64,000 nt of DNA from Balanoglossus misakiensis. Lineage: Eukaryota; Animalia; Hemichordata. Each line of letters begins with the position of its first letter. Position 1 is the stretch's first letter. The notes under the pieces were generated by a model. It ran no database searches. It was not told the origin of the DNA and worked only from the letters and a program-made list of their open reading frames with translations. Shown here piece after piece: positions 12,008 to 53,821 of the stretch. The stretch is taken from NCBI GenBank assembly GCA_040954595.2, contig CM082593.2, positions 8,344,043 through 8,408,042 on the forward strand, read 5' to 3'. A program made the position numbers and the translations under genes.

Positions 12008-12115
12008 TTAACTAATGTCATCCCACCAAGATTTTCTTCAATGTTTTATTGATTTTATTAATCCAGGAGAGACTATCATTGACAATGCCTTGTTTCATTT
12101 TCCCCACTTATACAG

Positions 12116-13006
12116 GCATGGGTTACGGACTGATCCATTCTAACGCCAGCTCTTTCATCGGATTTTACTTCAAGAAGAGATATTCGCTGGCAAGTGGACT
12201 GGCGTTTACCGGAATCGGAGCTGGATCTCTAGCCTTGCCTCCACTCTTTCAGTATTGCATCGATCTGTACGGCTGGGAGGGTGGTTTGCTCGTGTTTGCG
12301 GGACTCTCAGCCCATCTATGCGTAGCCGCGGCACTCATGAGGCCTTTGAGAAAGAGACAATCAGAACCCAGTGTTAAGAATTCACCAAATTTGAGTTCTG
12401 AAGACAATAAGGAGACGGGAGAACCGCACAAACCGGAAGAGGTTCCACTCGCAAATCTCGACGAGTTTGATGGAAGCAATTCGGGAAAGACAAGAGCCCG
12501 AATACAGTGCACAAGTATAGTCGAATTCTTTGACTGTGACAAACTTGTGAAACACTCGTACTATTTACTTTATTTGGTCACATTTGCTTTGTTTTCCTTC
12601 GGACAAATAATCTCAGTGGTTCATTTAGCCCCACGCATCAATAGCGTTGGCCAATCGAAAGACCGAACAGCTCTCCTTCTTTCACTGTACGGTGCAGGAA
12701 ACATCATTGGAGCGCCCTCGTGGGGCACCTTCATCAATAACTTCGCGAAGGTTCACGACAACATCGACATATTTATGGCTGCTGTTTACATGTTGTATGG
12801 AGTTACAGTTTTGCTGCTCCCCATGGCAACAGACACGCTGTCCATAGCTGTCTTCGTCGTCGCACTTGGCTTTGAAAGGGGTTCATTTTCTGCACAAACC
12901 CCTGTTCTGGTAAGAAGGTTGGTTGGAAATGAACTCTTTACCACTGCGTATGGATGGGCTCTCTTAGTTGCCAGTTTTGGGCAGCTTACTGGGGCGCCGA
13001 TTTCAG
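12116..13006 (+). CDS. SLC16-like transporter, coding exon 3
   Basis: CAG/GTGAGT boundaries, 891 nt. Carries YFKKRYSLASGLA, YGWEG and ALMRP motifs. Confidence 0.93.
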
Positions 13007-13140
13007 GTGAGTCTGACAGTGACTTATGTTTCTCTGATAGCGGCTGTTTTAACATGTTTGTGTGAATTTTTAGGACCTCTTTGGTATATTCTTTAACCAT
13101 TCTCAGTGTAGCAAACATACAAAGTAGATCTGGTACAATC

Positions 13141-16881: not shown

Positions 16882-17004
16882 TCAGTCCTGTGAGATTTCA
16901 TGAGCGATGTCTGCCATTTGACTGTCAATCAATGCTGTTTCCAGTGTTGGTACATCAGCTGCTGCACCTTCCCTGTGCATCCATTCTTGTAACATGGCAT
17001 AAAC
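16882..17004 (-). CDS. EF-hand/death domain protein, last exon (death domain, C-terminal half)
   Basis: AAG acceptor. Translates VYAMLQEWMHREGAAADVPTLETALIDSQMADIAHEISQD-stop. The spliced CDS is 1008 nt (335 aa) with no frameshift. Confidence 0.87.
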   Translation of the reverse strand, partial: VYAMLQEWMHREGAAADVPTLETALIDSQMADIAHEISQD

Positions 17005-17495
17005 CTTGAGGAAAACCAAAAAGACAATTAAGGCTCTGCTTCTAGAAATGTTGCACCAATCACATTAACGGGACAAATTGTAAGCTTATTTGTCACATTT
17101 GTAGCAAGATTCTTGGCCACAAACCAGGGTGTTCAAACAAATTGCACGATGTATAGAAAAACATGAAACCGCAACCATTTTAATAAATTACCTGCACTTG
17201 ACTATATTTACGCGACCTTTTTTTTTTGGCTCGCGCGTATTTTGCGAGAATTTTATTGCTCGCGAAAATAACCCATTTTTGCAGTATGCAGCTTTAATGA
17301 CAATGAGTACGGCATACAAGAGGGACAGAATAACTAAATCACTTCATGTGATTTCAATCAGATACTCAGACAGAAGACAGGTAAACAGAGACCAAGATTT
17401 CCATCGAACAAGAACACATAGACACTTTGGAGAAGAGGAGCAAGGTGATAGCAGTATCTTCCAAGAATCGGAAAGAAAAAACTCAAAACACGTAC

Positions 17496-17654
17496 CTGTT
17501 CGTGGTCTTTTCTAGGATATCTCTGCGCCAACTCATTCATATCCTCACTAGTAAAGCCTAGTCGATTGGCAAAGACATACCAATCTCTAGCACTGGCTCT
17601 GGTGGCTATAGTGTCCATGATGTCACTCGTAATAGCAATACGTCTTCGCGGTGA
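17496..17654 (-). CDS. EF-hand/death domain protein, exon 6 (death domain, N-terminal half)
   Basis: CAG/GTACGT boundaries. DWYVFANRLGFTSEDMNEL fits the death-domain W-x-x-(L/F)-A-x-x-LG pattern. Confidence 0.87.
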
Positions 17655-17805
17655 CTGTAGCAATTACAATCAAGAGAGAAAAGTCAATCGTTGGGAAAGG
17701 TGTATATGCAAGTTTGTAAAAGTGTGTTGAGAATAAAATAATTTCACATGAATGGTCTTCTGTGAGTGAGAAGTCGTTGAGAGATGGAAAGTAGAACAAC
17801 CTTAA

Positions 17806-17989
17806 AGGTATACAGTCACCTCTAATTTACATACGCCCATATATGGCAGAAATGGTGTATTTGAGCGGTCTAAAAAACATATGGTGGCACTCTTTTTTCG
17901 CGTGTGCCACCCACTGAAAATCTATGATTGGCTAGATCTCAATGTGCCATGGTAACTATAGCTAATTTTCCATTGGTGACCGTATACCT
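17806..17989. mobile_element. TTAA-flanked MITE family C (Kolobok/T2-like)
   Basis: TTAA-AGGTATAC(a/g)GTCACC...GGTGACCGTATACCT-TTAA. Other copies at 20329 and 39820. Confidence 0.87.
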
Positions 17990-18096
17990 TTAAAGGGACA
18001 TTAGCTGCAACTTTGTCTTTATTTTCAGTATTTTTATTCTGTGTACATAATCCATCTAAAATTACGGATGATACTTGGAACAGTGACTGTACTTAC

Positions 18097-18390
18097 TGGT
18101 TGTTGTAAGCTTGGTGGCTTTGAGTCCAGATGTTGTTCTGGTGGCGTTTGTCTGGGAGTGGGTCTGGGAGCAGGCTTTGGTCTCGGCCGTCGCTCAGATT
18201 TCTTCGAGTCCTGGCTTTTCTTGTCTCCATCTTGGATTTGTTGTGGAACAATCGAGAATGACAAGCATGCCTGTAGTTTAGTGTATGGCAGACCTTTCAG
18301 CCAATAAATGAACTGATCTTCATCAATGTATCCTTGCTGTTTTGTGTCGATTTCTGCCATCAAGACCTTGACATTGCCAGCAATTGTTTC
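18097..18390 (-). CDS. EF-hand/death domain protein, exon 5 (EF4 and Pro/Lys/Arg-rich linker)
   Basis: CAG/GTAAGT boundaries. MAEIDTKQQGYIDEDQFIYWL is an EF-hand, followed by RPRPKPAPRPTP. Confidence 0.87.
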
Positions 18391-18420
18391 CTGAAATGAA
18401 GAAATGACTCAAGATAAAGA

Positions 18421-18597
18421 TACTGTAAACCGGGAAATTTTCGCGACAGGAAATTTTCTCAATATCATAAGAGGCAACGATTAAAGTTCGCATTCTCATA
18501 TTTCACTTAACTGCATCGTTATCGCCGAAAAACATTTTACACCAACTTTTTATTTTTGGCTCTCGCCAAGTTCACGAAAATTTCTCGTTTTACAGTA
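18421..18597. mobile_element. MITE family A
   Basis: tactgtaaaccgggaaatttt...aaaatttctcgttttacagta. Confidence 0.8.
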
Positions 18598-18727
18598 GAC
18601 TTATCGAATTATCGCATGATTCCAGAGACAATCAAGACAAGTTTTAAAGTCCCACACTGCACAGGACTACTCCACTGATAATAGGTTATAAAATATGGTA
18701 TCAGATACATTAGAATTGATATATTAC

Positions 18728-18816
18728 CTGGTTTTCATCATCATATACACTTGATAATATTCTTGTAAGAGCCACTTTATCAATGACATCATTGTTATTC
18801 AAACTCTTGAAGAGGG
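18728..18816 (-). CDS. EF-hand/death domain protein, exon 4
   Basis: CAG/GTAATA boundaries. Translates ALFKSLNNNDVIDKVALTRILSSVYDDENQ. Phases fit. Confidence 0.82.
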
Positions 18817-20137
18817 CTGTAATTGAAAATCAGATGGATAAAAAAAAATCTCTTATGGTGAAGCGAAACATTTCAGGGTCCTATATTTATGTTCAAATAA
18901 TTAAAAATGTACTGTTTGTAGTCAAATACCAAGAGATAGTTTCAGGGTGATAGAAGTTCTTTTTGAGCTCTGCTGCAGCAGCACATAGGTTTTGCAAAGT
19001 CATATCAAAATATGTCCCATCCAATGAGGATTATGTTTCTAGAATATCTGTGTGAAATTTCTTCGGCAAATTCCAATCTCGATCACGTTGATCACAAAAA
19101 ATCTATTCTCTTCCAAATTAACTAAACGGAATTTGCAGGAGATATTTCACAGAATCATTTCCTCATTGGCTGGGGCATATTTTAGCTAAATACTTTCAAC
19201 TGTGAAGTAGTTACAGGGCGCGACAAGTTTCTGCCCAAAGCGCCCTCGTGTGACCATTTGGTGCCATTTTGGTGGTCCACTGTATGTTTCCCAGAGTCAA
19301 GTGTGGGATTCATTTGTCAACTGTTTTTGATATTCAACAGGCCGTTTTCAAGTCCCCACTTCACACCCACCCCTCAATTAGTGCCTGAAGTATATGGGTA
19401 CTACCGTTCTTACTTTTGGATGTCCATCTTTCCATTTGTTACTATGACAGACAGAATTGTATTTTAAAGCCCACTGAATGTACAACGATGTTAGTCAGGG
19501 CTTGCATTTGAAATTCTATTTTTTATATGCAGTGCACACAAAAAGCCCCAAAAATTTGTGTGAAATTGTATTTGAATTACGTGCAATAAAGTAACAATCG
19601 ACAAGCAGGCTTTTAGATAAGGAACAACTTGAATGACACAAAAAATGAACTTACAATTTAGCAAATGAAGTACAGAAACATCATGAAAGAGATGGCGTTC
19701 TCCCCCCCCCCCCTCCACTACGCATTAGAACAGACAAGGTAGCGAATTCTTGTGTTATCTTCAAGGAAAATGACCGGGAAGCCCTACTTGCTTTGTTATA
19801 TCTAATGGTTTCTGCGTGCATAAATTATAGCGCCGACACATGCTAAGTTTGTGGCCTAGGTTACCGCACATACATCAATGTGCGTCCTGCTACAGCATAC
19901 AAGCGCGCGTACGCATACAGGGCGCCCGACCGACCAACCTTGACAAGGCGCCCCAGGCATCCTTGCTCGTTCTGTTATCTTTCAATGGATTTTTTTTTGC
20001 GCGCATGTCACGCAACTGTGACAAACTATTTTCACGCACCCATTGTGGTTTTGCGTGAACCTGAGCCCTGGTTAGTATAGTGTAATGGTGATTAACTTTG
20101 CCGCATTCAGTCCAGCTTATGATTATTGTGGATCAGA

Positions 20138-20190
20138 AAGAGAGAGTGAGAGAGACAGACAGAGAGAGAGAGAGAGAGAGACAGAGAGAG
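20138..20190. repeat. (GA)n/(GACA)n microsatellite
   Basis: Direct reading of the sequence. Confidence 0.85.
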
Positions 20191-20328
20191 GGGAATACAG
20201 AACCCACTGTTACCTTAGAGATGAATGTATTCATGACGTCTCCACACACACCACTTTAACTTCACACATGAATTTTCTATGATATGAGATAACATGCATG
20301 GTGTTGACAGAAAGACACATTCCCTTAA

Positions 20329-20518
20329 AGGTATACGGTCACCTCCAATTTACATATGCCCATATATGGCTGATATGGTGTCTATGAGTGTTCTAAAGGA
20401 CATATGGTGGCGCTCTTTTTTCGCATGTGCCACCCACTGAAAATGTGTGATTGGCTAGATCTCATTTTGCCATGGTACATGTAACTGTAGCTATATTTGC
20501 ATAGGTGACCGTATACCT
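20329..20518. mobile_element. MITE family C
   Basis: Same TIRs and internal sequence as 17806-17989, with TTAA on both sides. Confidence 0.87.
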
Positions 20519-20543
20519 TTAACAGTCAGACTGAAAAGCTTAA

Positions 20544-20900
20544 AGGGACTTTAGCTGTAACTTTTGGCTTTATTTTGAGTTTTTTTGTTCTGGGTATCCA
20601 ATGCAATGTCTTGTTCTACTCCAAACAGCATGCTATTGTATACCAAATACTCTGTTTGTCAACATAGCCTGTATGTGTGTAACGGTCATTGTTATTGTTG
20701 AAAAATGAATTCTACTGAATTCGAATTTCGTACAATAACAATTCTCAGCTGACTATACACATATACCGTGTATGTTGTGTTAAATAAGCTGGATACTGGG
20801 CATTTCATCTTGCTTCCGGGATTTGAACAAGAAACTGCAGTAGCTAATCCACAAAACGAAAATACTGAAAACAGCAAAAAGTTACAGCAAATGGAGCTCT
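20544..20900. mobile_element. TTAA-AGGG MITE family D
   Basis: ttaaagggactttagctgtaactttt...aaaagttacagcaaat. A truncated copy begins at 17994. Confidence 0.65.
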
Positions 20901-21170
20901 AATTAATGAAAGGAGAGGGTACCACAAGTATTTAATCTTTCATTTTTCATGTATAATTTTCGTGATAACATTTGTAAGAAATGTGTCACAAACAAGCAAA
21001 GTGTAATTTTCTCACATGTAGTTATGACACTGTTATCACAAACTAGAATCATTCAATGATTGTTATAGAAATATGCAATACAGGTAACATTTGTATTTGG
21101 ACCTCATCACCTATTCAGGCAAATACTTGAGTACAGCTGCCTATAAAAACCAACAGAATTTTTGGCTTAC

Positions 21171-21276
21171 CTCGCGTTTTGTTATCAATATTTGCATTTT
21201 CAAACCATTTAGCAGCATTACAGTAAGTCTGAAAAGTGATACCTTGCACGTCGTTCCGGGGTAAGTGATGTAGTAT
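21171..21276 (-). CDS. EF-hand/death domain protein, exon 3
   Basis: TAG/GTAAGC boundaries. Translates ILHHLPRNDVQGITFQTYCNAAKWFENANIDNKTR. Phases fit. Confidence 0.82.
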
Positions 21277-21557
21277 CTAATGAAATCAATAAAAAAACAC
21301 CATTAAAAACTATTAACTTCAAAGTTGTTCACAGATCTGATCTGTGAACAACTTTTTTTTAAAATTGTGGGAAATTTTCGACTGTACTGATATTTCTTTA
21401 ATTTTTGACCATTTTGTCATAAATGTGTGTTATCTCGATATACTATTAGGCGATATCATTTAATAAACAGAATTAAAAGCAAATGAGATTACAACGTATT
21501 TAAAGCTTAATTTTTTTTGTATCCAGTGGAAGCTCATCCTTTTTTAACAGTATACAT

Positions 21558-21664
21558 GTCTGTAACCCGAGGGATTGTGAGTCACCCCTCAAAACAGACT
21601 GTTACCACAGGCCGAGGGAAACAGTCTGTATTATGGTGACTCACAGTCCCGAGGGGTAACAGAC
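21558..21664. repeat. Imperfect palindrome with CGAG/CGAG mismatches (same architecture as 9884 and 11348, opposite orientation)
   Basis: gtctgtaacccgagggattgtgagtcacc...ggtgactcacagtcccgaggggtaacagac. Confidence 0.8.
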
Positions 21665-21889
21665 GTATGCTGTTGCCTGAAAAGCCAGTCAATATTTGTT
21701 TTGTAACACACCTCATCCACAGCCATGCATGAGAACTCACCATACACAAAGTGAGCGGGCATCATTTTTCGGAACTGATGCCCAGCAGGCAACAGCACAA
21801 AAAGAACGCACACCATGTGACTATCAATTAATGAATGAGAACACAGTTTGCGGATGAGGTGTGTTACAATACAATCTGGTACATCTCAC

Positions 21890-22017
21890 CTTTTTTAGGA
21901 TTTCATCCTTGGTTACACGTGACTGTGCAAGTCTCTCCTGGGTAAGAATTCCATCACTGTTGTTGTTAGACAGCAAACAGAATCTCTTCCATAACCTTTC
22001 TACTTCAACCACTGGCA
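21890..22017 (-). CDS. EF-hand/death domain protein, exon 2
   Basis: TAG/GTGAGA boundaries. EVERLWKRFCLLSNNNSDGILTQERL resembles calcineurin B EF1 (EIKRLGKRF...). Confidence 0.85.
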
Positions 22018-22525
22018 CTACAGAAAAATCAGCACACTTTTGATGGAATATGTTCTGCTTGGAGTTAAGAGTGAAATCACAATCACATATATAACTGTTG
22101 ACTGCAATCCTTGGATGAACATTATCATGGAGACTGAACTGCAAGTCAATGCAGAATTCAAATCATTTGAAATGATCAACAATTGTGCAAATGTATAGAC
22201 CATATGCACAAACCAGAATTATATCATATCAAGCTACCGTCCAACATTCTGATTGTACGAGAGCTCAATCCAGCGATGGTAAATACTGTTTTACCACGGC
22301 TGGCAGTGGTAAAACGGGCCCCTGAACGAGCATGCAGCGGGGAAAATGTGCGGTTAAACCAAAAGAGTCAGCAATCTCTGCCTTTTAACCTCAAAATAAC
22401 AATAACAAAATTGTTATACTCTTGCTGTTGTAATCTTCTTTGTTTTGTAGTTTTGCTTTAAGATCTGGTTGCACTCCACTGTCAGAAGTGTGAACATACT
22501 TTGAGTACTGACAACGAGTACTTAC

Positions 22526-22634
22526 GCTTTAACGTTTGTGAATGAGCGTTGATCCAATTCCTTGCAGACGGGTGAGTGACCTCCGCAACAATACTACCAT
22601 CATTGTCGTAAAAAGTACTTGACAGAGCACCCAT
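22526..22634 (-). CDS. EF-hand (calcineurin B/CHP-like) + death domain protein, coding exon 1
   Basis: Not in the ORF track. Translates MGALSSTFYDNDGSIVAEVTHPSARNWINAHSQTLK, with a G2/S6 myristoylation pattern. Phase-1 GTAAGT donor. Confidence 0.75.
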
Positions 22635-23521
22635 AGCAGATTTGAATTATATCTTCTTTGCAGAGTTGTACAACCTTCTCTTCTGGATACACCTGCTGTA
22701 AACAGACCATTTATATCAGAGTCTCAGATGAAACAACTCTTTTGTAGTACCAAGAACACTCAGCCAAGATGTTGAGATTCATTGCCTGATATACTCTGTA
22801 CATGTATATAGCTCTTTAACTTTAGCAACATGACATGATAGGGGTTTATTTACAAATTATGCATACTGCACTTTTTGCATTATTTTCATGTTTTTTACTT
22901 TACAACTTAGATTTGGCCATCTACATGTAAAAAAGCTTACTGATAGGTCAATCTGATTAAAATCAGATGTAGTGTTGGGCACCATCTTTACCTTTGCTGA
23001 TTCTTGGCTGTTCATTATTGTACAGTACTCAATAATATCATCTGTACATTTACATAAATTATTATATTATGCTGGAGAGTAGCTGCAATGACTGCTAGGT
23101 TGATGATGTGCTCGCAGCCCTACGGAATGTTTATGGCAAAGTATTACAAAGCCTAAGGTTGACCATAAATGAGCAAGGTGATGAAGCAATTGCATGTGTA
23201 ATGTGGTTATCCATGGACAACAATGTGAATAGATATAACTTAGCATGGTATATTAGCTGCAGTTCAGTAGCTCGATGTTTTTTCATGTTTGTGTGTTAGA
23301 CTGCAAAACACACACCACAGTCGCTTGAAAACTCACAGTTTTACAAGCGACTCACTGTGAATAAAGTTCCGGCATAAAAAAATAATCATAGCAGCGTCTC
23401 CAAAGCTTGTTGCTACGTTACGTACGCTTCAGTTCAAGGGGCTAACCGCGCGCTAAATAAACGGTGTAAGCAAAATTAAATTCAAAATGTGTAGTCAAGG
23501 CGCAAATTCTGCGGGATTTAC

Positions 23522-24510: not shown

Positions 24511-24626
24511 TTGACGGAGAACTACCATTGCTATCGCAAACTTCATTGCAATAACTGCTATTTTACCTACTTGGAAACTCTTTCAAGGCATATACTGACA
24601 TATACTTTGAAGTGCTAGACACCGAG

Positions 24627-25715
24627 ATGGGAAAGCAACGAAGTAAAAGGTATGTACCCAATCCTTATCGTAGAAAATACCATCATTCTACCACTTCCCA
24701 TGTTGACGACTTGACCGTGTTGAGAAAGTCTTTATCTGCGCCCGCTATTTTGAAATCTTCGGCTGTTTCGGTCACTTTTCCCAAACGATCTAAAATTTCC
24801 CTGACTAAATCTACTTCCTTCCCAATCATTCCATCTGTTGTTTCTGATAACCGATCATGTATTCCCTCCAACGAGACTGTTCTTTCCACCACTAAAACCC
24901 CGATCGCCACTCAGAATTCTCTCCAAACTAAACCAAGCTCTCCACCTGGTCCCTCGAATCCCGCTACTAAGCCATATATTTATGACCCGTTCATGGAGTA
25001 TTTTAACGAATTCACATTTTGTATGGGTGAGAGAGAAATTCCTCCTTCCGACGCACTTGCTAACCAGAAACAACTCAGCATCGAACATCGATCCACCATG
25101 GTGGGATTTGTTACAAAGGTTTGCAGAGAGCTGGAATTTCCGGAAGAAGTCTTATTCAAAACTGTAGACTTCTTTGACAGATACCTCTTACTGGCGCCCA
25201 CCGACCAAGTTTCACCAAATCTGCTGAAGAGCATCGCAGCAGTAACTTTAGCCACCGCCATTAAAGCCTGCGAGTTTGACTACTCTGGCTTCTTGAACGA
25301 CATCGCTGCATTTTGTGATGGTGACGTCACCGTGGATGAGATGAAGATACTAGAATGGCATATTCTGACAACTTTGAAGTTTGATCTGAACAGACCCACT
25401 GCCTCCGACTTCTTACACCAAATCGTCTTGCCTGCTCAAGTCAGAGATGTGGAATCGGAAAGCCAACTCCACCTGACCGTCAAGATGGCCGAAGCTATAC
25501 TGGTTCTGTGTTTGCAGTCTTACGAACTGAGTTGCTGTACACCTTCACTTCTGGCCAAGATAGCACTTGCCATTGCAAACGACAGAAACCAACTTCCATC
25601 GCACATGAAGTATCTACTGGACGATCATCTCATGGGACACCGAGCTCGGAAAGGACAGATGACGCATTACAGAAGAAAGATGCAGTCATTTCTGGATGAC
25701 TTTTATGCCACATAA
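24627..25715 (+). CDS. Cyclin (cyclin-O-like), tandem copy 1, 362 aa from the first ATG
   Basis: Cyclin box RSTMVGFV...TVDFFDRYL...AIKACE...LEWHILTTLKFDLNRPTASDFL. DALANQKQLSIEHR, AAFCDG and CLQSYELSCCTPSLLAKIALAIA recall cyclin O ([43 protein letters not shown]). AATAAA at 25777. Confidence 0.88.
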   Translation: MGKQRSKRYVPNPYRRKYHHSTTSHVDDLTVLRKSLSAPAILKSSAVSVTFPKRSKISLTKSTSFPIIPSVVSDNRSCIPSNETVLSTTKTPIATQNSLQTKPSSPPGPSNPATKPYIYDPFMEYFNEFTFCMGEREIPPSDALANQKQLSIEHRSTMVGFVTKVCRELEFPEEVLFKTVDFFDRYLLLAPTDQVSPNLLKSIAAVTLATAIKACEFDYSGFLNDIAAFCDGDVTVDEMKILEWHILTTLKFDLNRPTASDFLHQIVLPAQVRDVESESQLHLTVKMAEAILVLCLQSYELSCCTPSLLAKIALAIANDRNQLPSHMKYLLDDHLMGHRARKGQMTHYRRKMQSFLDDFYAT

Positions 25716-27695
25716 AAATGTTGTAAACAAACCTAAATTATAATATCGAAAACTATCTTCCCACCCTAATGCATTCAATAAAAGCCTCATGATATTCTCG
25801 AGAAATAATACGATTTAAAGCATAACGGATAAACAGTTTCAATCGAAATATATCTTTCACCAGACTTTAGCTTTGATTCACTTTAACAGGTATGTATTTC
25901 CATGGCAACTGTGTTCATTTGGTAAACTGTACCTTACATATAATCTCCTTTCACATCATCCTCACATGGTTGGGATATCTGAAAAAGTTACGTGTCACAT
26001 TCATCAGAACTTCAATGGTAATTATTTAAAAATTGAAACTGCGCCCCTTTCTTTAAAAAAAACGCTAAGAACAAGTAGTAAAACCGGAAACGTATCTCCA
26101 AATGGCAAGAGATAGGCTGGCTTAGGTTCCCTCATATCAAGATTATATAAAAAGAAATTGATTTGTCAGATAAACATTTTAATCGAGGACAAAATATGAA
26201 AAACTATTCATGAACAATTAACAGAAGTCCACTCTTAATGTGAAGGGCGGCCAACTGCAGTATAAAATTGTCTAGGTCTTAATAGAAATCCATGAATTCT
26301 GAAAACTTCTCTAATACGACATTTTGGTTATCGTAAAAAACTGTCATGAAACATTCCTAAAAAATTATTGCGCAAAATGATATTATCATAAACACCAAAT
26401 TTCGATTGAATTAATTTCGGACCTGTTATTGGATTTGACCGTAGGCCTAATCAGCTGACATTCAATCTTTTGTTGCCTGAACTCTTGAAAATGTGTAATT
26501 AAAGTTAATTATTACTTTTTAAAACCCTTCATATTACATTCATAACAACGGCAAAATGTGAGAAATGTGTAGCTAGGCAAGCATGATTTTGAGGTCAGTT
26601 AGTGGAATAGCATTTGTTTGATATCGACAGTAAATATGGGCAGATGCCTGTTTGTTCGAGTTCCACAAAACAACCCAACGTATTCCTCGACGAAATCAAA
26701 AATGGAAAATTTTCCCCCGTCTTCGAAAATATGTATTTTGATAAATAAAATTGTAAGATATATCACAACTTCGACTCCGGATATTTTAAAATAATTTATT
26801 GATAGAATTAAGCGGACTTCATTCGACATACACACTTCACAACATTTTTGTACTCATAATCAGCCTACAAAGGACGCAACAAAATCACTCCAACGTCCTT
26901 GCGTCCACTACGTATCAATGAATAATTTTATTTGATGACTGTACAGGAAACGTTGCAATTGATACAACCCGACCGTGGTTTTCTTGGACAAATCGCACGA
27001 TTCTTGACGATTCCATGAAACATCAGGAAGCTTACGCTCCGTCAAACACGTGTTTTTAACATAATTAGTATTTTCCCCCGATTTTTCTCTCGAAAGCGTG
27101 CCCGTAACATAAATTGTGCACCAAACCAGTGTCATATACATAATTTTCAAAAAAGCTTAATATCATGTTCTTTTCCTTCATGGGTGCAAAAAAAAACACC
27201 ACAAACAAATGCAAACACATTACCCACTACAACAACCTACTTTCGCATCAGAGAAGGGAAAGAAACCCGAAAAGAATACTGCTCGATGTGTGTAATTCTT
27301 TGCGTTTGTGTAGGCCTAGTCAGTTTCCATTAAGGATGTTAACAATTGACGTCGGATGTCAAATCATTGCCGATTATCTCTATCGTGGGAACGCTAAAAT
27401 TGTGACATCATTTCGAACATTCTCTGTGATGGGACTCTCTCCGCATGCGCAAACAACAGAGAGTCCTGGAACTCTCGAAGAACTAAAACGATCTCCGCGT
27501 GCTGTCGAACATTTTGGCCTCGATCGGAAGAAAACAAATTCCTTCTTTATTTGCTGGTTGTTTGAGATGCTCAACACAAACTCGAAGTCTGGACGAGGTT
27601 AGTCGTTGTGACGTAAAGGAAGAATCCGTAACCATGGTACCGATCAAACTGTTTACGACAGCATTGACGGAGAACTACCATTGCTAGACACCGAG

Positions 27696-28784
27696 ATGGG
27701 AAAGCAACGAAGTAAAAGGTATGTACCTAATCCTTATCGTAGAAAATACCATCATTCTACCACTTCCCATGTTGACGACTTGACCGTGTTGAGAAAGTCT
27801 TTATCTGCGCCCGCTATTTTGAAATCTTCGGCTGTTTCGGTCACTTTTCCCAAACGATCAAAAATTTCCCTGACTAAATCTACTTCCTTCCCAATCATTC
27901 CATCTGTTGTTTCTGATAACCCATCATGTATTCCCTCCAACGAGACTGTTCTTTCCACCACTAAAACCCCGATCGCCACTCAGAATTCTCTCCAAACTAA
28001 ACCAAGCTCTCCACCTGGTCCCTCGAATCCCGCTACTAAGCCATATATTTATGACCCGTTCATGGAGTATTTTAACGAATTCACATTTTGTATGGGTGAG
28101 AGAGAAATTCCTCCTTCCGACGCACTTGCTAACCAGAAACAACTCAGCATCGAACATCGATCCACCATGGTGGGATTTGTTACAAAGGTTTGCAGAGAGT
28201 TGGAATTTCCGGAAGAAGTCTTATTCAAAACTGTAGACTTCTTTGACAGATACCTCTTACTGGCGCCCACCGACCAAGTTTCACCAAATCTGCTGAAGAG
28301 CATCGCAGCAGTAACTTTAGCCACCGCCATTAAAGCCTGCGAGTTTGACTACTCGGGCTTCCTGAACGACATCGCAGCATTTTGTGATGGTGACGTCACC
28401 GTGGATGAGATGAAGATACTCGAATGGCATATTCTGACAACTTTGAAGTTTGATCTGAACAAACCCACTGCCTCCGACTTCTTACATCAAATCGTCTTGC
28501 CTGCTCAAGTCACAGATGTGGAATCGGAAAGCAAACTCCACCTGACCGTCAAGATGGCCGAAGCTATACTGGTTCTGTGTTTGCAGTCTTACGAACTGAG
28601 TTGCTGTACACCTTCACTTCTGGCCAAGATAGCACTTGCCATTGCAAACGACAGAAACCAACTTCCATCGCACATGAAGTATCTACTCACAGATCATCTC
28701 ATGGGACACCGAGCTCGGAAAGGACAGATGACGCATTACAGAAGAAAGATGCAGTCATTTCTGGACGAGTTTTATGCCACATAA
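27696..28784 (+). CDS. Cyclin (cyclin-O-like), tandem copy 2, 362 aa
   Basis: Intact ORF differing from copy 1 at about 6 residues. AATAAA at 28852. Confidence 0.88.
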   Translation: MGKQRSKRYVPNPYRRKYHHSTTSHVDDLTVLRKSLSAPAILKSSAVSVTFPKRSKISLTKSTSFPIIPSVVSDNPSCIPSNETVLSTTKTPIATQNSLQTKPSSPPGPSNPATKPYIYDPFMEYFNEFTFCMGEREIPPSDALANQKQLSIEHRSTMVGFVTKVCRELEFPEEVLFKTVDFFDRYLLLAPTDQVSPNLLKSIAAVTLATAIKACEFDYSGFLNDIAAFCDGDVTVDEMKILEWHILTTLKFDLNKPTASDFLHQIVLPAQVTDVESESKLHLTVKMAEAILVLCLQSYELSCCTPSLLAKIALAIANDRNQLPSHMKYLLTDHLMGHRARKGQMTHYRRKMQSFLDEFYAT

Positions 28785-30218
28785 AAATGTTGTAAACAAA
28801 CCTAAATTATAATATCGAAAACTATCTTCCAAATTTAGGCCTAATGCGTTCAATAAAAGCCTTATGATATACACGAGAATTAACACGATTTAAATTAAGC
28901 ATAACGGAAAAACAGTTTCAATCTTAGATTCTATTTTTCACCAGACTTTAGCTTAATTCAATTCAACAGGTATGTATTTCCATGGCAACTGTGTTCATTT
29001 GGTAAACTGTACCTTACATATAATGTACTTTTCACACCATTCTCATATGTTTGGGATATCTGAAGAAATTATGTGTCACATTCTTCAGAATTTCAATGGA
29101 AATTATTTTGAAACTGTAAAGTGCGCCCCTTTCCTAAAAACGTTAAGAACAAGTGTTAAAACCGTGATAAAGTGATAAATAAAATTGTAAGATATATCAC
29201 AACTTCGACTCCTAATATTTTAAAATAATTTATTGATAGAATTAAGCGAAATTCATTCGACATACACAATTCCGAAATTTGTTGTATTGAATGATAAAAC
29301 TGCCTACAAAGGACGCAACAAAATCACCCCAACGTCCTTGCGTCCACTACGTATCAATGAATAATTTTATTTGATGACTGTACAGGAAACGTTGCAATTG
29401 ATACAACCCGACCGTGTTTTTTTGATAAATCGAACGATTCTTGACGATTCCATGAAATATCAGTAAGCTTACACTCCGCCAAACACGTGTTTTTTAAAAC
29501 AAAATTACTATTTTTCCCCAGAGTTTTCTCTCGAAAGCGTGCCTGTAACATAAATTGTGCACCAAACCAGTGTCATATAGTTTTTCAAAAAAGCTTAATA
29601 TCATGTTCTTTTCCTTCATGGGTGCAAAAAAACACACACCACAAACAAATGCAAACACATTACCCACTACAACAACCGACTTTCGCATCAGAGAAGGGAA
29701 AGAAACCCCAAAAGAATACCGCTCGATTTGTGTAATTCTTTGCGTTTGTATAGGCCTAGTCAGTTTCCATTAAAGATGTTAACATTTGATGTCGGATGTC
29801 AAATCATTGCCGATTATCTCTATCGTGGGAACGCTAAATTTTGGCGTCATTTCGAACATTCTCAGTGATAGGACTCTCTCCGCATGCGCACACAACAGAG
29901 AGTCCTGGAACTCTCGAAGAACTCAACCGATCTCCGCGTGCTGTCGAACATTTTGGCCTCGATCGGAAGAAATCAAATTCCTTCTTTATTTGCTGGTTGT
30001 TTGAGATGCTCAACACAAACTCGAAGTCTGGACGAGGTTAGTCCTTGTGACGTAAAGGAAGAATCCGTAACCATGGTACCGATCAAACTGTTTACGACAG
30101 CATTGACGGAGAACTCCCATTGCTATCGCAAACTTCCTCGCAATAACTGCTATTTTACCTACTTGGGAACTCTTTCAAGGCATATACTGACATATACTTT
30201 GAAGTGCTAGACATCGAG

Positions 30219-31310
30219 ATGGGAAAGCAACGAAGTAAAAGGTATGTACCTAATCCTTATCGTAGAAAATACCATCATTCTACCACTTCCCATGTTCTTG
30301 ACGAGATAACCGAGTTGAGAAAATCTTTATCTGCGCCCGCTATTTTGAAATCTTCGGCTGTTTCGGGCACTTTTCCCAAACCATCTAAAATTTCCCTGAC
30401 TAAATCTACTTCCTTCCCAATCATTCCATCTGTTGTTTCTGATAACCGATCATGTATTCCCTCCAACGAGACTGTTCTTTCCACCACTAAAACCCCGAGA
30501 GCTTCTCAGAATTTTCTCCCGACTAAACCAAGCTCTCCACCTGGTCCCTCGAATCCCGCTACTAAGCCATATATTTATGACCCGTTCATGGAGTATTTTA
30601 ACGAATTCACATTTTGTATGAGTGAGAGAGAAATTCCTCCTTCCGACGCACTTGCTAACCAGAAACAACTCAGCATCGAACATCGATCCACCATGGTGGG
30701 ATTTGTTACAAAGGTTTGCAGAGAGCTGGAATTTCCGGAAGAAGTCTTATTCAAAACTGTAGACTTCTTTGACAGATACCTCTTACTGGCGCCCACCGAC
30801 CAAGTTTCACCAAATCTGCTGAAGAGCATCGCAGCAGTGACTTTAGCCACCGCCATTAAAGCCTGCGAGTTTGACTACTCTGGCTTCCTGAACGACATCG
30901 CTGCATTTTGTGATGGTGACGTCACCGTGGATGAGATGAAGATACTAGAATGGCATATTCTGACAACTTTGAAGTTTGATCTGAACAGACCCACTGCCTC
31001 CGACTTCTTACACCAAATCGTCTTGCCTGCTCAAGTCACAGATGTGGAATCTGAAAGCAAACTACACCTGACCGTCAAGATGGCCGAAGCTATACTGGTT
31101 CTGTGTTTGCAGTCTTACGAACTCAGTTGCTGTACACCTTCACTTCTGGCCAAGATAGCACTTGCCATTGCAAACGACAGAAACCAACTTCCATCGCACA
31201 TGAAGTATCTACTGGACGATCATCTCATGGGACACCGAGCTCGGAAAGGACAGATGACGCATTACAGAAGAAAGATGCAGTCATTTCTGGATGACTTTTA
31301 TGCCACATAA
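30219..31310 (+). CDS. Cyclin (cyclin-O-like), tandem copy 3, 363 aa
   Basis: Intact ORF with one extra codon and clustered N-terminal substitutions. The poly(A) hexamer position reads AAAAAA. Confidence 0.88.
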   Translation: MGKQRSKRYVPNPYRRKYHHSTTSHVLDEITELRKSLSAPAILKSSAVSGTFPKPSKISLTKSTSFPIIPSVVSDNRSCIPSNETVLSTTKTPRASQNFLPTKPSSPPGPSNPATKPYIYDPFMEYFNEFTFCMSEREIPPSDALANQKQLSIEHRSTMVGFVTKVCRELEFPEEVLFKTVDFFDRYLLLAPTDQVSPNLLKSIAAVTLATAIKACEFDYSGFLNDIAAFCDGDVTVDEMKILEWHILTTLKFDLNRPTASDFLHQIVLPAQVTDVESESKLHLTVKMAEAILVLCLQSYELSCCTPSLLAKIALAIANDRNQLPSHMKYLLDDHLMGHRARKGQMTHYRRKMQSFLDDFYAT

Positions 31311-35868: not shown

Positions 35869-37737
35869 TCACATCCACTTTTGGTACGGCCCCGTTACCG
35901 TGGTGAATGCATACGACTTAAGAGTCACTAGACTGTCTGTTGTCATAGTAACGGCTTGTTTAATAGGTATACTAGACACCTCAACCTCCTTCAGAGTTTG
36001 TACAGTCTCTTTTTCGGCAGGTTCCGTTTCCTGGACTAGTTTCGCTTTCTTTCTACCCCGCGTCGGAGTTGATGGGATGGGTTCCCCGGACGCCCTAGCT
36101 GCCTCCTCAGCCTCAAGTTGCCGGTTGGCCATCTTGATTTCATACTCATTCATGCCGTGATATCTGTAGTTCATATGTTTGTGGTGATAAAAGACTAGCG
36201 CAATGCGCGTCGGGTGATGGCGATTGGGTCTCTTCAGAGCTGTGGTGGCGTGCAGTTCCCGCTTGGCGACTTCAAAGAGCACGGCGCCGTGCTGCAACGC
36301 AATTGCCACTCCGCCGATCTCGGAGTCCATGAAACAACGTTCACTGTCGGAAAAGTACGCCTCGTCCTCCAATGCTGCCACTTTCAAATCTTTTGCCAGT
36401 TCTGCGTTTGGCTTACAGCCAACAGCCGGTCCCTGCCCACCCATGGAATGTGGTAGTATTGCAGCATTCTGTGGAATTCTGGGGTGGCCCACAAATCCTG
36501 AGCCGCTCATTGAATGTGCCTCGCCGTGTTGTCGATACGGCGACTGTCCCGGTCCATCTTTCGACGTCTGAGGTAGTTTGGACTGCTGGGATGGCAGATA
36601 GCCTTCAGACCGATTGGATTCCTTGCCCTTCAAAGTTTCCATTTTGCTATTGTGAGCAATGACTCCATTCGGTAAGAGTTGATACTGTTCTTTGCTCTGA
36701 GTGGACGGCACTGATTTACCTCCATCATTCGATTCACTCGATTTCTGCCTCTCCGCAGATTTACCATAGTGTTCTTTGTTGCCATGGTGATCTGCATTCG
36801 CATTTAGTTTAGAAACATCTGGTTTGACATCTTCTCGTTGATCCATACCAGGGTACCCTGGGTAGCCCATAAGTCTTGGATCAATAAGTCCAGGTGCTCT
36901 GGGAAACAAGCCCAGGCCAGGCATTCTGGAATCGGGATAGCCCTGTCCGAACATTGGAATATAAGACGGATAGCCAAATGGATACATTCCGGGACGCATG
37001 CCGTGCAAGAATCCCGGAGGCATTCCCCACGGATACATTCCATTGAGCAGCATTGGATGGCCGGACATTTCACCAAGGCCTGGGCGGAGACCAGCTGGCA
37101 TTTCAGCGCGGTACATAGCGTGGATGTCCTGGGGCATTGGCATATTGGAATCTCTTGGCCAGCCGGGGGCAGGGGGTTGTTGGGTTGTACTTTCACTGGT
37201 GGGCATCTGCCCAGGATGTTGTTGTTGTTGTTGTTGCTGCTGCTGCTGTTGTTGTTGTTGTTTGATTTGAGCCTGTTCGGGGAAAGCTTCATTAGCTGTC
37301 CTTTTTTCACCCCTCTGCTCCTGCTTTGCGTGTTGAGTCGACGGTTGGTGCGCTGTGTGACTTTGCTGTTGTTGCTCGCCGTGAAGGTAGAGTCGTTTTT
37401 GTTCGATGGCTGTCGGTACGGGCATGGGGATACCTTTGTCTCGTTTGCCGTCCGCATCTTGATTGCTGCTGGCGTTCTGGGAGCTGCTGGATGATGACTG
37501 GCTGCCTCGTTTCCCCTTCTTCATCTCCGCTATTTGGTCTTTGGTTTTCTTGCGAAGTTCTCGCCGGAACGAGTGCAGTATCTGAAGTGAACCGTTTCGA
37601 ACTTTCTCCTGTTGTCCCTCAGCGCTGCCAAACTCATCCACTGGTGCTATCTTGTACAACGGCAACACGTGTAATTGTTCGTCAACTTCAGCTGGCTTTT
37701 GAATGACGCGGTTTTCCTCCTTTGTCAGAGTAAGTAA
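35869..37737 (-). CDS. TET: TET, last coding exon (DSBH insert, distal His, C-terminal tail)
   Basis: DEQLHVLPLY...GGVAIALQHGAVLFEVAKRELHATT...TRIALVFYHHK...VTGPYQKWM-stop. Contains a polyQ tract. The total CDS is 5151 nt if no exon was missed. Confidence 0.96.
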   Translation of the reverse strand, partial: LLTLTKEENRVIQKPAEVDEQLHVLPLYKIAPVDEFGSAEGQQEKVRNGSLQILHSFRRELRKKTKDQIAEMKKGKRGSQSSSSSSQNASSNQDADGKRDKGIPMPVPTAIEQKRLYLHGEQQQQSHTAHQPSTQHAKQEQRGEKRTANEAFPEQAQIKQQQQQQQQQQQQQQHPGQMPTSESTTQQPPAPGWPRDSNMPMPQDIHAMYRAEMPAGLRPGLGEMSGHPMLLNGMYPWGMPPGFLHGMRPGMYPFGYPSYIPMFGQGYPDSRMPGLGLFPRAPGLIDPRLMGYPGYPGMDQREDVKPDVSKLNANADHHGNKEHYGKSAERQKSSESNDGGKSVPSTQSKEQYQLLPNGVIAHNSKMETLKGKESNRSEGYLPSQQSKLPQTSKDGPGQSPYRQHGEAHSMSGSGFVGHPRIPQNAAILPHSMGGQGPAVGCKPNAELAKDLKVAALEDEAYFSDSERCFMDSEIGGVAIALQHGAVLFEVAKRELHATTALKRPNRHHPTRIALVFYHHKHMNYRYHGMNEYEIKMANRQLEAEEAARASGEPIPSTPTRGRKKAKLVQETEPAEKETVQTLKEVEVSSIPIKQAVTMTTDSLVTLKSYAFTTVTGPYQKWM

Positions 37738-37970
37738 CTGTCATAGAATACAGAGAAACACTTGGTAACTATAGCGATAAACCTCTGCCATGCTAAGATA
37801 TAAATTTTCTATTTCCTTGAAATTATGAAAAGTGCTCTGGTTTATGTAGAACAGAGCATTTGTCATCTAGAAAGTACCAATTTGTTTTCAATGGATACAT
37901 TTTTCGGTAAATAACAGCATATGGATGCATTCACTGAGAGTTGTAAAATCGGTTTGATATACAGAGTTAA

Positions 37971-38297
37971 AGGGCGATGATCGTCTTATGCGCATGTGCC
38001 AAACCAGAGACTCTGGTTACAAAAATTGTATACAGTCAGTGGCATAAGACGTTGTGCAACAGACAAAATGGTGGCAACCATAGCTTGTATCAGAGATCGG
38101 GGAAAGACAGCTAAATTGGGTGAAAAGCAGGGATAAAACTAAAGTCTAGTTATACGGTGCGCATATGGAAAGCCTAAAGAGAAGGCAGTCCACGATTTGA
38201 ATCTGTCGAACGCGAAAATTTGCAGAACATTTGTGGATTGGATGTAATGTTTGTACACACAAAATTACGCACATGCGCATAAGACGATCGTCGGCCT
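37971..38297. mobile_element. TTAA-flanked MITE (Kolobok/T2-like)
   Basis: TTAA-agggcgatgatcgtcttatgcgcatgtgc...gcacatgcgcataagacgatcgtcggcct-TTAA. Confidence 0.82.
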
Positions 38298-38434
38298 TTA
38301 ATACAACAGTGAATGAACAGCAAATTGAAATGAGATCCACGGTGTTCAAAAAAAGAAAATTCTAGTGAGGCTGACACTACCCACAACCAAAATGAATTTG
38401 CAGAATACCCAGGGCTACAAAAGTCTCTACTCAC

Positions 38435-38572
38435 CACAGTACATCCATTATTCATGTTATGTTGATCTTTGTGACTATGTGCACAGAAATCAACACATGC
38501 AGTCACTCCAGTAAACGGACGACCTTCACCGTAACCAAGGCGACATTCCATTCCCTCCCTTTCATGAGCAGT
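38435..38572 (-). CDS. TET: TET, coding exon 8 (HxD iron-binding motif)
   Basis: 138 nt; [37 protein letters not shown]. Confidence 0.97.
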
Positions 38573-38905
38573 CTGTCAATCAGAAAGACAAAACATTTAT
38601 AAGGTCTCAATAATGTAAATACACACCAATTTTCAAAGCAATCTGACCAGCAGTTCTTGAGTTACTGAGTTTTGACCAATTTCACATTTTCCTGGCTCAT
38701 TTGCATATTTTTTGCAATGACAACTTCATTTGAACAAACTCCCATCTACAGCCCAGCATGCATCTGCACACCAAATATCAAGGTGATATGCCAAGCGGTT
38801 TTGAAGTTTTTGATGTGGACCGATATACTTAATGAACTTGATGTATACTTTCTCAAAGCACTTCTTTGCCCTGTCACTGCATTTCTGTTCTGTGCATGTA
38901 CTTAC

Positions 38906-38995
38906 CTGATTCCCATAAGAATCTGGGGCTATTTTCTTATACAGTGGCCCAATTTCAGTGGCAAGTGTTTGCAGTCGTGCCTCTAATTCCTCCTC
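38906..38995 (-). CDS. TET: TET, coding exon 7
   Basis: 90 nt; EEELEARLQTLATEIGPLYKKIAPDSYGNQ. Confidence 0.95.
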
Positions 38996-39227
38996 CTGTT
39001 AATGAAAATTTAATACTGGTATTAATTCCATAACAATAACATTTTAATATCTATTTCCACGCTGTGTTGGCATGGGCTATGCAGGCGTATTGCCAAACAA
39101 TTATAAATTGTAATGAAATTTGTAACTAGTTGCAAGTTGTGAATGTCCACGGTAACGAGTTTCTCATGAATATTCATATCACCAGAGAGCATGACAAAGA
39201 TGCACTATGACTAAACAACTACATGTT

Positions 39228-39442
39228 TACTGTAAAAGGTGTTATTTTCACGAGCAATAAATTTTCACGAAATTTGCGCGAGCCAAAAAAAACCCGTTAA
39301 AATAGAAAGTCACGTAAAAAGTTTTTCGGAGATAATGATGCAGTTAGTGAAATACGAGAACGCCAAAATTAATCCTTGTGTTACAGTTGCCTTTTTTGAT
39401 ATCGCGAAAAATTTCCTGTCGCAAAAATAACCTGTTTGCATA
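39228..39442. mobile_element. MITE family A (inverted relative to the 1914 copy)
   Basis: The internal sequence is the reverse complement of 1914-2121. Confidence 0.75.
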
Positions 39443-39588
39443 AGAATGATTTCCTTGTAACGAACACTTCAGTATAATGAACATTTTGTATGTCCCCCCA
39501 CAATGGTCGTTATAGCGATGCTCCACTGCATCAGGTGTCACAATTCTCTGACGTGTACTAGTAATTTGGGAATACTTTTTGAACTCAC

Positions 39589-39742
39589 CTCTTTGACATC
39601 AGCTGACGAGGAAAGTTTGAATTTCTTAGGAGTTTTACTGCGAGCAAATTTGCAACCATTATAATACATGGACCAAGAACATCCAAAGGAGAATGAAGCC
39701 CCACATGATTCGGAATCATAGCCCTGACAGGCACACGTTTTC
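39589..39742 (-). CDS. TET: TET, coding exon 6
   Basis: 154 nt; KTCACQG...[24 protein letters not shown]. Confidence 0.96.
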
Positions 39743-39819
39743 CTGAAGAAAAAAAAGTTGTCTTGTTAAAAAAATCAATTCACATGTAGGGACTCGTAGA
39801 AGCAGCTTTACAACATCAA

Positions 39820-39991
39820 AGGTATACGGTCACCTATGGTTACCATGGCAAATTGAGATCTAGCCAATAACAGATTTTCAGTGGGTGGCACACGCGAAAA
39901 AAAAGAGCACCACCATATGTTCTTTAGAACACTCAAATATGCCATTTCAGCCATATATGGGCGTATGCAAATTGGATGTGACTGTATACCT
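39820..39991. mobile_element. MITE family C (inverted)
   Basis: aggtatacggtcacc...gtgactgtatacct-TTAA. Confidence 0.82.
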
Positions 39992-40611
39992 TTAAATTGT
40001 TGCTTTTGATGTTACATATCAAACATTATTGTCAATAAATGTTTTTTTAAGGAAGTCATCTATTCTAATACTATAAATAGGAAGTTTGAAAAACATGCAA
40101 GAATTACTTCCTCATCTAGAGTAATATTTACACATAGCTATATATTTAAGGTTTAATGATAAATATTACAGAAGTCTGGTTAAAATGTTTTCAATCATTT
40201 GCATGACTAACAAGGAATACATCAATATTGAGGAAAATAAAGGATGATCAATACAATTTTCTTGAAATGTGCTTGTTATTCTTCGATATCAAATAACGTC
40301 AGAGGCAGTTACGTTAGCATTCAAATTTCCAGATGACGGGCAACTTCAGCAACGTAGTGCAGACAAACACTGTGCAGACGAAATGCCAAGACGCTGATAA
40401 GGCACCATACCTGATACATGTTACGTGTCTGGCGGTTCTAAAGTAAAAACATACTCGGAAAAACTTTTACTGGATGCCGAAAAATTGCTTGCCCGTCGTC
40501 AGGAAATGACAACGCCGTGGGTCATATTGCCAGATCACGTGATTGATAGTAAAGAACAAGTTTGAATCTATCACAGGAATAAAAAAAAAAACTGAAGTGC
40601 AAAACACTTAC

Positions 40612-40820
40612 TCTTCATTAGTGCCACATCTTCTGACAGTCGGCTGTCCATGTCTGGATAATTTCTCTGTCAGCCATGAGTAGGTGTCATCCGATCTTTC
40701 CGAACGAACACCTTCCCATGCTACTATGGCAACAATGATAACAGCTGTTTGGCAGTAATGTCCAGTACGATGACGTACAACGCACAGCACCTTTTCTTCA
40801 GGTCCCGATCGGCGAATAAC
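40612..40820 (-). CDS. TET: TET, coding exon 5
   Basis: 209 nt; VIRRSGPEEKVLCVVRHRTGHYC...AWEG...RRCGTNE. Confidence 0.96.
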
Positions 40821-41394
40821 CTACATTCAAAGACAAAGAAAATATATCAGAAATTGCTGCATTATGGGCTTCACACACATGCATTTGAAATGTTTCTGAA
40901 ACGTCTCAGGTCAAATACTGGCATAATTATTATGTGTTAACAGTTTAAGTGGTCCTGAAATGGCTCAGATTTGAGACGGCTTTGCCGGTCAGACCTGAGC
41001 CGATGTAAAGGATTAACATCTCTCCGCAACCCATTGTGTATGGGGCCGAGCCTCAGCGCCTATACATAAACTTTGTGTGTGTGGACATAAGGCGACTCAA
41101 AGGATTCATGCTCTGTGTTTACAAATGGCAAACAGTGTCTCTGAAACGTTTCTACTTTACCCAGTGTGAACCTGGTATATGGCACTTAGTAACATGCAAA
41201 TTGCCATGCTTGTGCAAGACTGTTTCTTGTATGAAGAAACTGTCTTGGACTTAATGTATACCAAAATGGTTACAAATAAAAATACATAATGTACTTAATA
41301 TTAGTACACCCCACCAAACAATGTACACCATCATATTCAAACCAGACCTCACCATTATGCCATGTGATAACCCCCTCCTTATTTTGTCACTTAC

Positions 41395-41488
41395 CCATTT
41401 TGCAATAGGACAGCCCAAAGATCCCTTGCCTTCTTTTCCAGTATACACAATCTGTTCTATTCGCACTGCTTTGCCTTTTTCACCAATC
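41395..41488 (-). CDS. TET: TET, coding exon 4
   Basis: 94 nt; [27 protein letters not shown]. Confidence 0.96.
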
Positions 41489-41877
41489 CTGAAATAAATA
41501 TTATGTCATCATTTAAAATTATGTTTGTTAGAGGGCACACTCACTGTCTTTCTGTACTTTTGTTGGTATTGGATGCTTGGTACCCATACATGTTCTGAGT
41601 GGGGGAACCATGTTATGATTTGCAGTGCTTTGTAAAGGGAGGTACCCAGGTAAATGTTACCGGGGTTCCCCGCAGTCATTTTACTGCGTACCGGGCTTCC
41701 TCTTGGTATATCAGTGCAGTCATATTTGGTAGCTAGCAGAAGCGTTACCGGGGTTCTTAATTCATTTACCAATATTACCAAAAACACTGTTTTGACGCTG
41801 GCTGTGTTTGATGACATCACGTCTATTTGAACATAAAAGTTACACTCAATGTCTGTAAGTACGACGAAACAACAAAC

Positions 41878-41968
41878 CTGTTTTCCATCATCTGTCTTAT
41901 TGCTGCTAGCGATGGACCAGTACCTAGCTGTGTGTAATATGGGCCCTCGTCTTTCTCATTAGGATTCT
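41878..41968 (-). CDS. TET: TET, coding exon 3
   Basis: 91 nt; [27 protein letters not shown]. Confidence 0.95.
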
Positions 41969-45390: not shown

Positions 45391-45500
45391 AGCCAACTTT
45401 TCAATATTTGTTTTTTTTATTTTCCTGTAATCCTGAAATGTCTACAACTTGCCAACTTTTCAATATTTGTTTTTTTTATTTTCCTGTAATCCTGAAATGT
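45391..45500. repeat. Local tandem duplication, 60-bp period
   Basis: The 50-nt block gccaacttttcaatatttg...cctgaaatgt occurs at both 45391 and 45451. Confidence 0.9.
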
Positions 45501-52460: not shown

Positions 52461-52478
52461 TGACACCAGAGGGCGCTC
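52461..52478 (+). promoter_or_regulatory. CTCF-like motif in TET intron
   Basis: tgaCACCAGAGGGCGCT closely matches the CTCF core. Motif evidence only. Confidence 0.45.
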
Positions 52479-53812: not shown

Positions 53813-53821
53813 ATTGTAGTT

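Follow-up and report, generated by a model that had tools for sequence, protein, structure and literature searches.

An unnamed bilaterian protein family joining a calcineurin B/CHP-type EF-hand module to a death domain, with a member in the hemichordate Balanoglossus misakiensis

Introduction

Does one gene in Balanoglossus misakiensis (Hemichordata) encode both an EF-hand module and a death domain, and what could such a protein do? The question is raised by positions 16882..22634 of a stretch of 64,000 nucleotides (GenBank assembly GCA_040954595.2, contig CM082593.2, positions 8,344,043 to 8,408,042), here called the window, to which all coordinates refer. The original prediction, made from this DNA alone, described a seven-exon gene for a 335-amino-acid protein with a myristoylation-type N-terminus, a calcineurin B/CHP-like EF-hand part and a C-terminal death domain, and proposed a membrane-anchored adaptor. 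The parts are known, and the protein belongs to an unnamed, bilaterian-wide family that combines both modules; among its named relatives, 29 species of seven phyla have the two halves together.

The original prediction knew of no characterised protein with this architecture, and none came to light here. The layout was not found described in the literature searched by layout and by member gene identifiers, with supplementary tables, where orthologs may be listed, and most subscription journals lying outside the search. The term EF-hand is absent from five supplements of PMC2575513, and PMC6071037 and PMC9334734 concern other proteins. A conserved animal family without a name thus joins two well-studied signalling modules. 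Its four degenerate calcium loops, kept over seven phyla, are a natural test of the role of the fold without calcium. A search for partners can start directly from the death domain, and orthologs are present in flatworm, amphioxus, frogs and lizards. The family is at this stage a lead.

Gene structure

The seven exons, all on the minus strand, join in frame to 1008 nt encoding 335 amino acids with a single terminal stop, in agreement with the predicted model. All six introns are GT..AG, with phases 1, 0, 1, 0, 0 and 0, and every exon aligns to the Glandiceps talaboti protein (P0002); the identities for exons 1-7 are 23/36, 26/43, 24/35, 19/30, 42/78 aligned, 38/51 and 29/40. Family profiles built without the window protein were run on 2820 six-frame open reading frame (ORF) fragments of the window. 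Seven fragments matched with E 4e-6 or better and these are the seven exons; the next match had E 0.9, and no second gene copy was seen among the fragments.

Exon 1 (22526..22634, amino acids 1-36) holds the Met-Gly start, a Ser at position 6 and a family-specific N-terminal extension with conserved P22, W27, I28 and H31. Exon 2 (21890..22017, amino acids 37-79) encodes an entering helix with the invariant W46 and the pseudo-EF1 loop at 21967-21932, which has Asn at position 1 and Arg at 12. The pseudo-EF2 loop (21261-21226; Pro at 1, Thr at 12) lies in exon 3 (21171..21276, amino acids 80-114), and exon 4 (18728..18816, amino acids 115-144) encodes pseudo-EF3, with a loop two residues shorter than in calcineurin B. 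Exon 5 (18097..18390, amino acids 145-242) comprises EF4, whose loop (18348-18313) has Asp at position 1 and Gln at position 12, the closing helix of the EF module, which extends to about 18238, and then a linker rich in Pro, Arg and Lys. The end of the linker and the first half of the death domain are found in exon 6 (17496..17654, amino acids 243-295) and the second half in exon 7 (16882..17004, amino acids 296-335 and the stop).

The Pfam Death profile scored 30.2 bits on exon 7, above the cut-off of 22.6, and 19.5 bits on exon 6, under it; EF-hand_1 scored 17.1 bits on exon 5, under its cut-off of 25.4. The two halves meet at the junction 18097-17654 between exons 5 and 6, across which the Ptychodera flava protein (P0001) aligns without a gap. 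Judged from splice signals and relatives, this predicted junction joins both halves in one gene. That there are instead two adjacent genes, or an artefact of gene prediction, is hardly credible. The junction in B. misakiensis is indeed read from sequence, and the title of PMC4967905 cautions that novel domain combinations in lancelets may be prediction errors. Yet the same fusion occurs in all 29 named species, contigs of 1.2-1.5 kb carry it as an unbroken ORF, and P0001 aligns over the junction.

An in-frame stop four codons 5' of the ATG (ORF 22482-22646) closes the frame, and the Met-Gly is therefore the likely start. At 22692-22700 (minus strand), about 58 bases 5' of the ATG, lies an acceptor-like sequence, which hints that a non-coding first exon precedes it. 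Read-through of the exon 5 donor (18034-18096, minus strand) meets a stop after 20 codons; the hypothetical product would be an EF-only isoform resembling the Styela and Seison proteins described below. Intron 5 (17796-17995), intron 3 (20323-20522) and the interval 39834-39995 hold copies of a dispersed repeat some 200 bases long; the copies share 86-90% identity.

Family members and phylogeny

With exon 5 as query one protein was obtained among 66 candidates, P0001, and the first 200 residues of P0001 gave two among 130, adding P0002. The window protein is 65% identical to P0001 in the EF part and 82% in the death-domain part; the corresponding values for P0002 are 63% and 76%. A HMMER search with P0001 returned 106 proteins at E 0.001 or better, 46 of them at 1e-10, and a profile of 33 members retrieved 21 proteins among 6818 candidates. 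At least 60 bits on the EF profile were reached by 87 of the 143 fetched proteins (the 33 profile members included) plus the window model, and 65 of these 87 also had at least 30 bits on the death-domain profile. The core set consisted of 59 proteins that scored at least 150 bits and spanned the EF module from end to end; clustering at 90% identity left 43 non-redundant members, the window protein included. The death domain is present in 37 of the 43.

The named relatives with both halves are the hemichordates Ptychodera (two paralogs) and Glandiceps; among echinoderms two Diadema, Patiria and Anneissia; the annelids Owenia and Capitella; the molluscs Sinanodonta, Potamilus and Haliotis; the flatworm Macrostomum; and the rotifer Rotaria. 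The chordates are Branchiostoma, Hypanus (stingray), Synaphobranchus (eel), Spea, Rhinoderma, Geotrypetes, Alligator, Malaclemys, Emydura, Podarcis, Zootoca, Eublepharis, Heteronotia, Paroedura, Lerista and Varanus. No mammal, bird, insect or nematode was found among the named relatives; most of the 106 HMMER hits are unnamed and the word-based searches are insensitive. Four proteins (P0011, P0012, P0015 and P0023) are encoded by whole two-domain ORFs of 292-320 amino acids on contigs of 1189-1462 bases. Such contigs are too short for introns like those of the window gene, and the two halves therefore stand in one uninterrupted frame.

The members are named 'uncharacterized', 'hypothetical', 'unnamed' or 'Death domain-containing', the exceptions being P0011, with a generic EF-hand label, and P0055, an evident mislabel. 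Pfam marks for both Death and EF-hand were carried by 5 of the 21 rows of the 33-member profile search, so that databases already display the layout, although it has no description. The ESM Atlas holds a mainly chordate cluster of 62 members with Death in 97% (score 0.94).

A quick tree grouped the window protein with the Ptychodera and Glandiceps proteins with a support of 100 (Shimodaira-Hasegawa-like approximate likelihood ratio test, SH-aLRT). Vertebrates (100) and echinoderms (96) were likewise supported. The deep branching has no firm order in this quick tree, where long branches come together close to the root, and no sequence of events is read from it. The filasterean Pigoraptor has a distant relative, P0069, in which the EF module is followed by an unrelated tail.

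The P. flava paralogs P0001 and P0003 are both listed on contigs of 35,945,698 bases, and P0001 has a differing N-terminus without Met-Gly, possibly owing to a wrong first exon. The divergent member P0087 is probably a fused gene model: its death domain is degenerate (Pfam E 0.033), and the protein ends in a piece of reverse transcriptase. Of 14 pattern matches to P0002 in metagenome contigs, none was confirmed as a relative.

EF-hand module

The fold was assessed on an AlphaFold model of the Glandiceps ortholog P0002, standing in for the window protein. The model (mean predicted local distance difference test score, pLDDT, 90.1; predicted template modelling score, pTM, 0.64) shows the EF module ending near residue 195, then a linker modelled with low confidence, and six helices forming a domain at 231-312. 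As modelled, the N-terminal module has a four-EF-hand fold of the calcineurin B/CHP/CIB type. The top matches, CHP1, CALM-1, calcineurin B, CHP2 and CIB3, are tied at Z 12.9-13.2, root-mean-square deviation (rmsd) 3.8-4.6 and 165-171 aligned residues: CHP1 gave Z 13.2 (rmsd 4.2, 169 aligned), calcineurin B 13.0 (4.4, 165), CHP2 13.0 (3.8, 165) and CIB3 12.9 (4.6, 169). The model of the EF-only protein of Styela (pLDDT 89.0, pTM 0.80) has the same fold and is closest to CHP2 (Z 12.5, rmsd 3.8, 163 aligned). The calcineurin B/CHP-type fold of the original prediction is thus borne out by the ortholog model and by the sequence profile, in which calcineurin B is nearest (E 9.5e-16 to 3e-14, the human protein at 2.9e-14), followed by CHP1 (5.8e-12) and KChIP1 (1.3e-11).

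The helices align with those of calcineurin B (PPP3R1 and fungal CnB) with gaps of two residues at most, and calcineurin B also carries an N-terminal myristoylation site (PMC10368425). The two differ in that all four loops of calcineurin B are canonical, while the family described here has no canonical loop and adds an N-terminal extension and a helix, a linker and a death domain. The match to CHP1 takes in the helix before EF1 (helix 27-35 of the model): residues 21-197 of the model lie on residues 8-203 of CHP1, the alignment starting at CHP1 residue 8. The family is, however, about 20 residues shorter, 154 profile positions (32-185) spanning 174 residues of CHP1 (18-191). The EF module of CHP1-3 is interrupted midway by a long insertion specific to CHPs; in the family this is not present, there being no such gap relative to calcineurin B. 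The CHPs, 185-208 residues long, have no death domain. Proteins of the CIB1-3/CALM-1, NCS-1/KChIP, plant CBL and calaxin groups share the four-EF fold (Z 10-13), but have lower sequence scores and no death domain; they bind calcium or magnesium. Judged by its sequence, the family would work like calcineurin B or CHP but is neither, since the calcium loops typical of each are lacking.

Several of the matched entries show the EF-hand protein bound to its target (calcineurin A, NHE1/NHE3 or TMC1). In such complexes a helix of the target occupies the hydrophobic groove of the EF-hand protein. The idea that the N-terminal extension fills this groove was prompted by the P0002 and Styela models, whose alignment with the CIB2-TMC1 fusion 8XOQ starts at residue 3 and takes in its TMC1 part, and was rejected. 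In 8XOQ the TMC1 piece contacts helix 1, the loop that follows it and helix 5 (PMC11861898), and the alignment gains no more than 6-12 residues. Packing of the extension against the N-lobe is thereby hinted at weakly at best.

Calcium-binding loops

The loops were compared with the canonical 13-residue EF-hand pattern of PROSITE. It was found in none of the 43 members, none of the wider set of 87 and none of the four loops of the window protein, whereas all four loops of calcineurin B, used as control, were canonical, as was one loop in P0102, a hit resembling calcineurin B. Position 1 of EF1 is Gly or Gln in 31/42 members. EF2 has Pro at position 1 and Thr at position 12, each in 25/43, and every one of the 43 has an EF3 loop shortened by two or three residues. 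The hydrophobic framework is kept, with W46 in 43/43, F94 in 42/43, W103 in 41/43 and F49, F171 and F189 in 40/43. EF3 is the active calcium loop of CHP3 (tescalcin), which senses calcium via this single loop (PMC10368425), and it is EF3 that is shortened here. A CHP-type active calcium loop in the C-lobe was not seen in sequence, EF3 being short and EF4 of the window protein having Gln at position 12.

With four EF loops devoid of calcium ligands, a calcium sensor is unlikely, and the module is probably a pseudo-EF-hand scaffold. The EF-hand adaptor of the original prediction consequently stands in part: the architecture is real and belongs to a bilaterian-wide family, but calcium sensing is unlikely with 0/43 canonical loops. 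EF4 is the candidate for a residual calcium or magnesium sensor that would switch the death domain on. It has Asp at position 1 in 39/43 members, Gly at 6 in 38/43 and Asp at 9 in 20/43, P0029 has four of four side-chain ligands, and CHP3 offers the example of sensing by one loop. Position 12, on the other hand, is Gln in 25/43, Asp in 4 and Glu in only 2, position 3 is most often Lys, at most two of the four ligands are present in 37/43 and the partner loop EF3 is shortened; an EF4 switch is on these counts distinctly improbable.

N-terminus

Met-Gly starts 33 of the 43 members, and 26 of these 33 have Ser or Thr at position 6. The window protein, with Met-Gly and Ser6, carries the same myristoylation-type motif, so that at motif level the original prediction holds, and on this sequence the protein is likely N-myristoylated. 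A lone myristate is a weak membrane anchor. Only 3 of the 33 Met-Gly members have a Cys in the first 25 residues, and residues 2-20 are net acidic in 27 of 33. Membrane anchoring, as originally proposed, is something we infer: most members have neither cysteine nor basic patch to back the myristate, and membrane location would therefore need a second signal, such as a partner.

Death domain and linker

The C-terminal death domain was likewise confirmed. In addition to the match on exon 7, Pfam Death scored 61.2 bits on P0001 and 61.6 on P0002, and the six helices at 231-312 of the P0002 model have pLDDT above 90. The model superposes on the death domains of FADD (Z 15.2, rmsd 1.8, 88 aligned), ankyrin-G (Z 14.8, rmsd 1.2, 84 aligned), RIPK1 (Z 14.7, rmsd 1.8, 90 aligned) and ankyrin-B (Z 14.1). 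By this modelled six-helix death fold, the domain is a true death domain (PF00531). The FADD, ankyrin and RIPK1 matches are tied within 1 Z unit, and no one death-domain family stands out as parent. Mean pairwise identity among 36 members is 34% in the EF module, 33% in the death domain and 13% in the linker, which varies from 12 to 55 amino acids.

The likeness to FADD, RIPK1, RAIDD/CRADD, PIDD and the ankyrins is limited to the C-terminal death domain (Z 13-15; best matches 25-30% identical), the second module being a pseudo-EF-hand unit rather than a DED, CARD, kinase, LRR or ZU5. Pfam searches of the exons, P0001 and the 33 members found EF-hand and Death families only, and no DED, CARD or kinase. 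From its sequence the protein is a member of the death-domain family but not an adaptor of the FADD, RAIDD or RIPK type.

To judge from sequence and model, nothing beyond the name of the domain points to immunity or apoptosis, the death domain being as near to ankyrin as to FADD or RIPK1. The ankyrin matches allow a structural or cytoskeletal adaptor, in which an ankyrin-like death domain would serve as scaffold contact and the protein would be a fixed subunit of a membrane-skeleton or ciliary complex. Immune death-domain genes expand fast; the family by contrast looks mostly single-copy and its tree follows the animal groups, with the SH-aLRT values given above. Calaxin and axonemal EF-hand chains are also among the fold matches, although calaxin is lower (Z 10.4 versus 13.0 for CHP2 in the same comparison). 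Such a structural role is rather unlikely.

Proposed mechanism

The reading preferred here, tentatively and at slightly less than an even chance, is a myristoylated, calcium-independent helix clamp that carries a death domain on a flexible tether and so recruits death-domain proteins. The calcineurin B/CHP-type module, likely myristoylated and calcium-independent, would clamp a helix of a partner protein in its groove at the membrane. The myristate together with the bound partner would give the membrane location, and the death domain on its flexible linker would recruit other death-domain proteins to this site by homotypic contact. CHP3 may serve as precedent: its affinity for NHE1 is nanomolar whether calcium is bound or not, and its myristate becomes exposed once the target is bound (PMC10368425).

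Several observations weigh against this mechanism. Beside the complete EF4 ligand set of P0029, five members have three of the four, and by these residues EF4 may bind an ion weakly. Ten of the 43 members do not start with Met-Gly, three of them carrying the motif behind an extension, and the divergent members P0012 and P0021 have another N-terminus. In GCAPs the myristate remains buried (PMC10368425); a myristoyl site is thus no proof of membrane anchoring. The death domain is absent from six of the 43 members, including those of Styela and Seison, of which some may be truncated models, and also from the tick relative P0064 (isoform X2). Since EF-only members exist, the EF module may also act independently of a death domain.

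These EF-only members, the Pigoraptor protein with its unrelated tail and the rank of calcineurin B as best sequence match would fit a protein that functions through its EF module and has the death domain as accessory. Blind to calcium, the module would compete with calcineurin B or CHP for calcineurin A or a Na+/H+ exchanger, or take their place there. The identity to calcineurin B and CHP is only 14-23%, and the death domain, present in 37/43, is as conserved as the EF module, which makes such a stand-in improbable.

The helix clamp with its tethered death domain may also be set in a wider frame, which is doubtful. The family would then be an ancestral bilaterian link, from flatworms to crocodilians, in which a calcium-blind calcineurin B derivative holds a transporter, channel or phosphatase of the membrane and ties this target directly to death-domain assemblies of cell death or NF-kB signalling. 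It would possibly have been lost in mammals, birds, insects and nematodes, and this loss would explain why the link was missed.

Neighbouring features in the window

Three tandem intronless cyclin ORFs lie on the plus strand at 24555-25715, 27612-28784 and 30147-31310, each with Pfam Cyclin_N and Cyclin_C. They are 93-95% identical in DNA, flanks included, which by sequence identifies them as a recent local triplication. A TET dioxygenase gene extends over 35869-55198 on the minus strand, with a Tet_JBP match in 35869-37740 and a CXXC finger in 54404-55198. About 4 kb past the 3' end of the EF-hand/death-domain gene, on the opposite strand, is an exon of a major facilitator transporter (12016-13065, plus strand; MFS_1).

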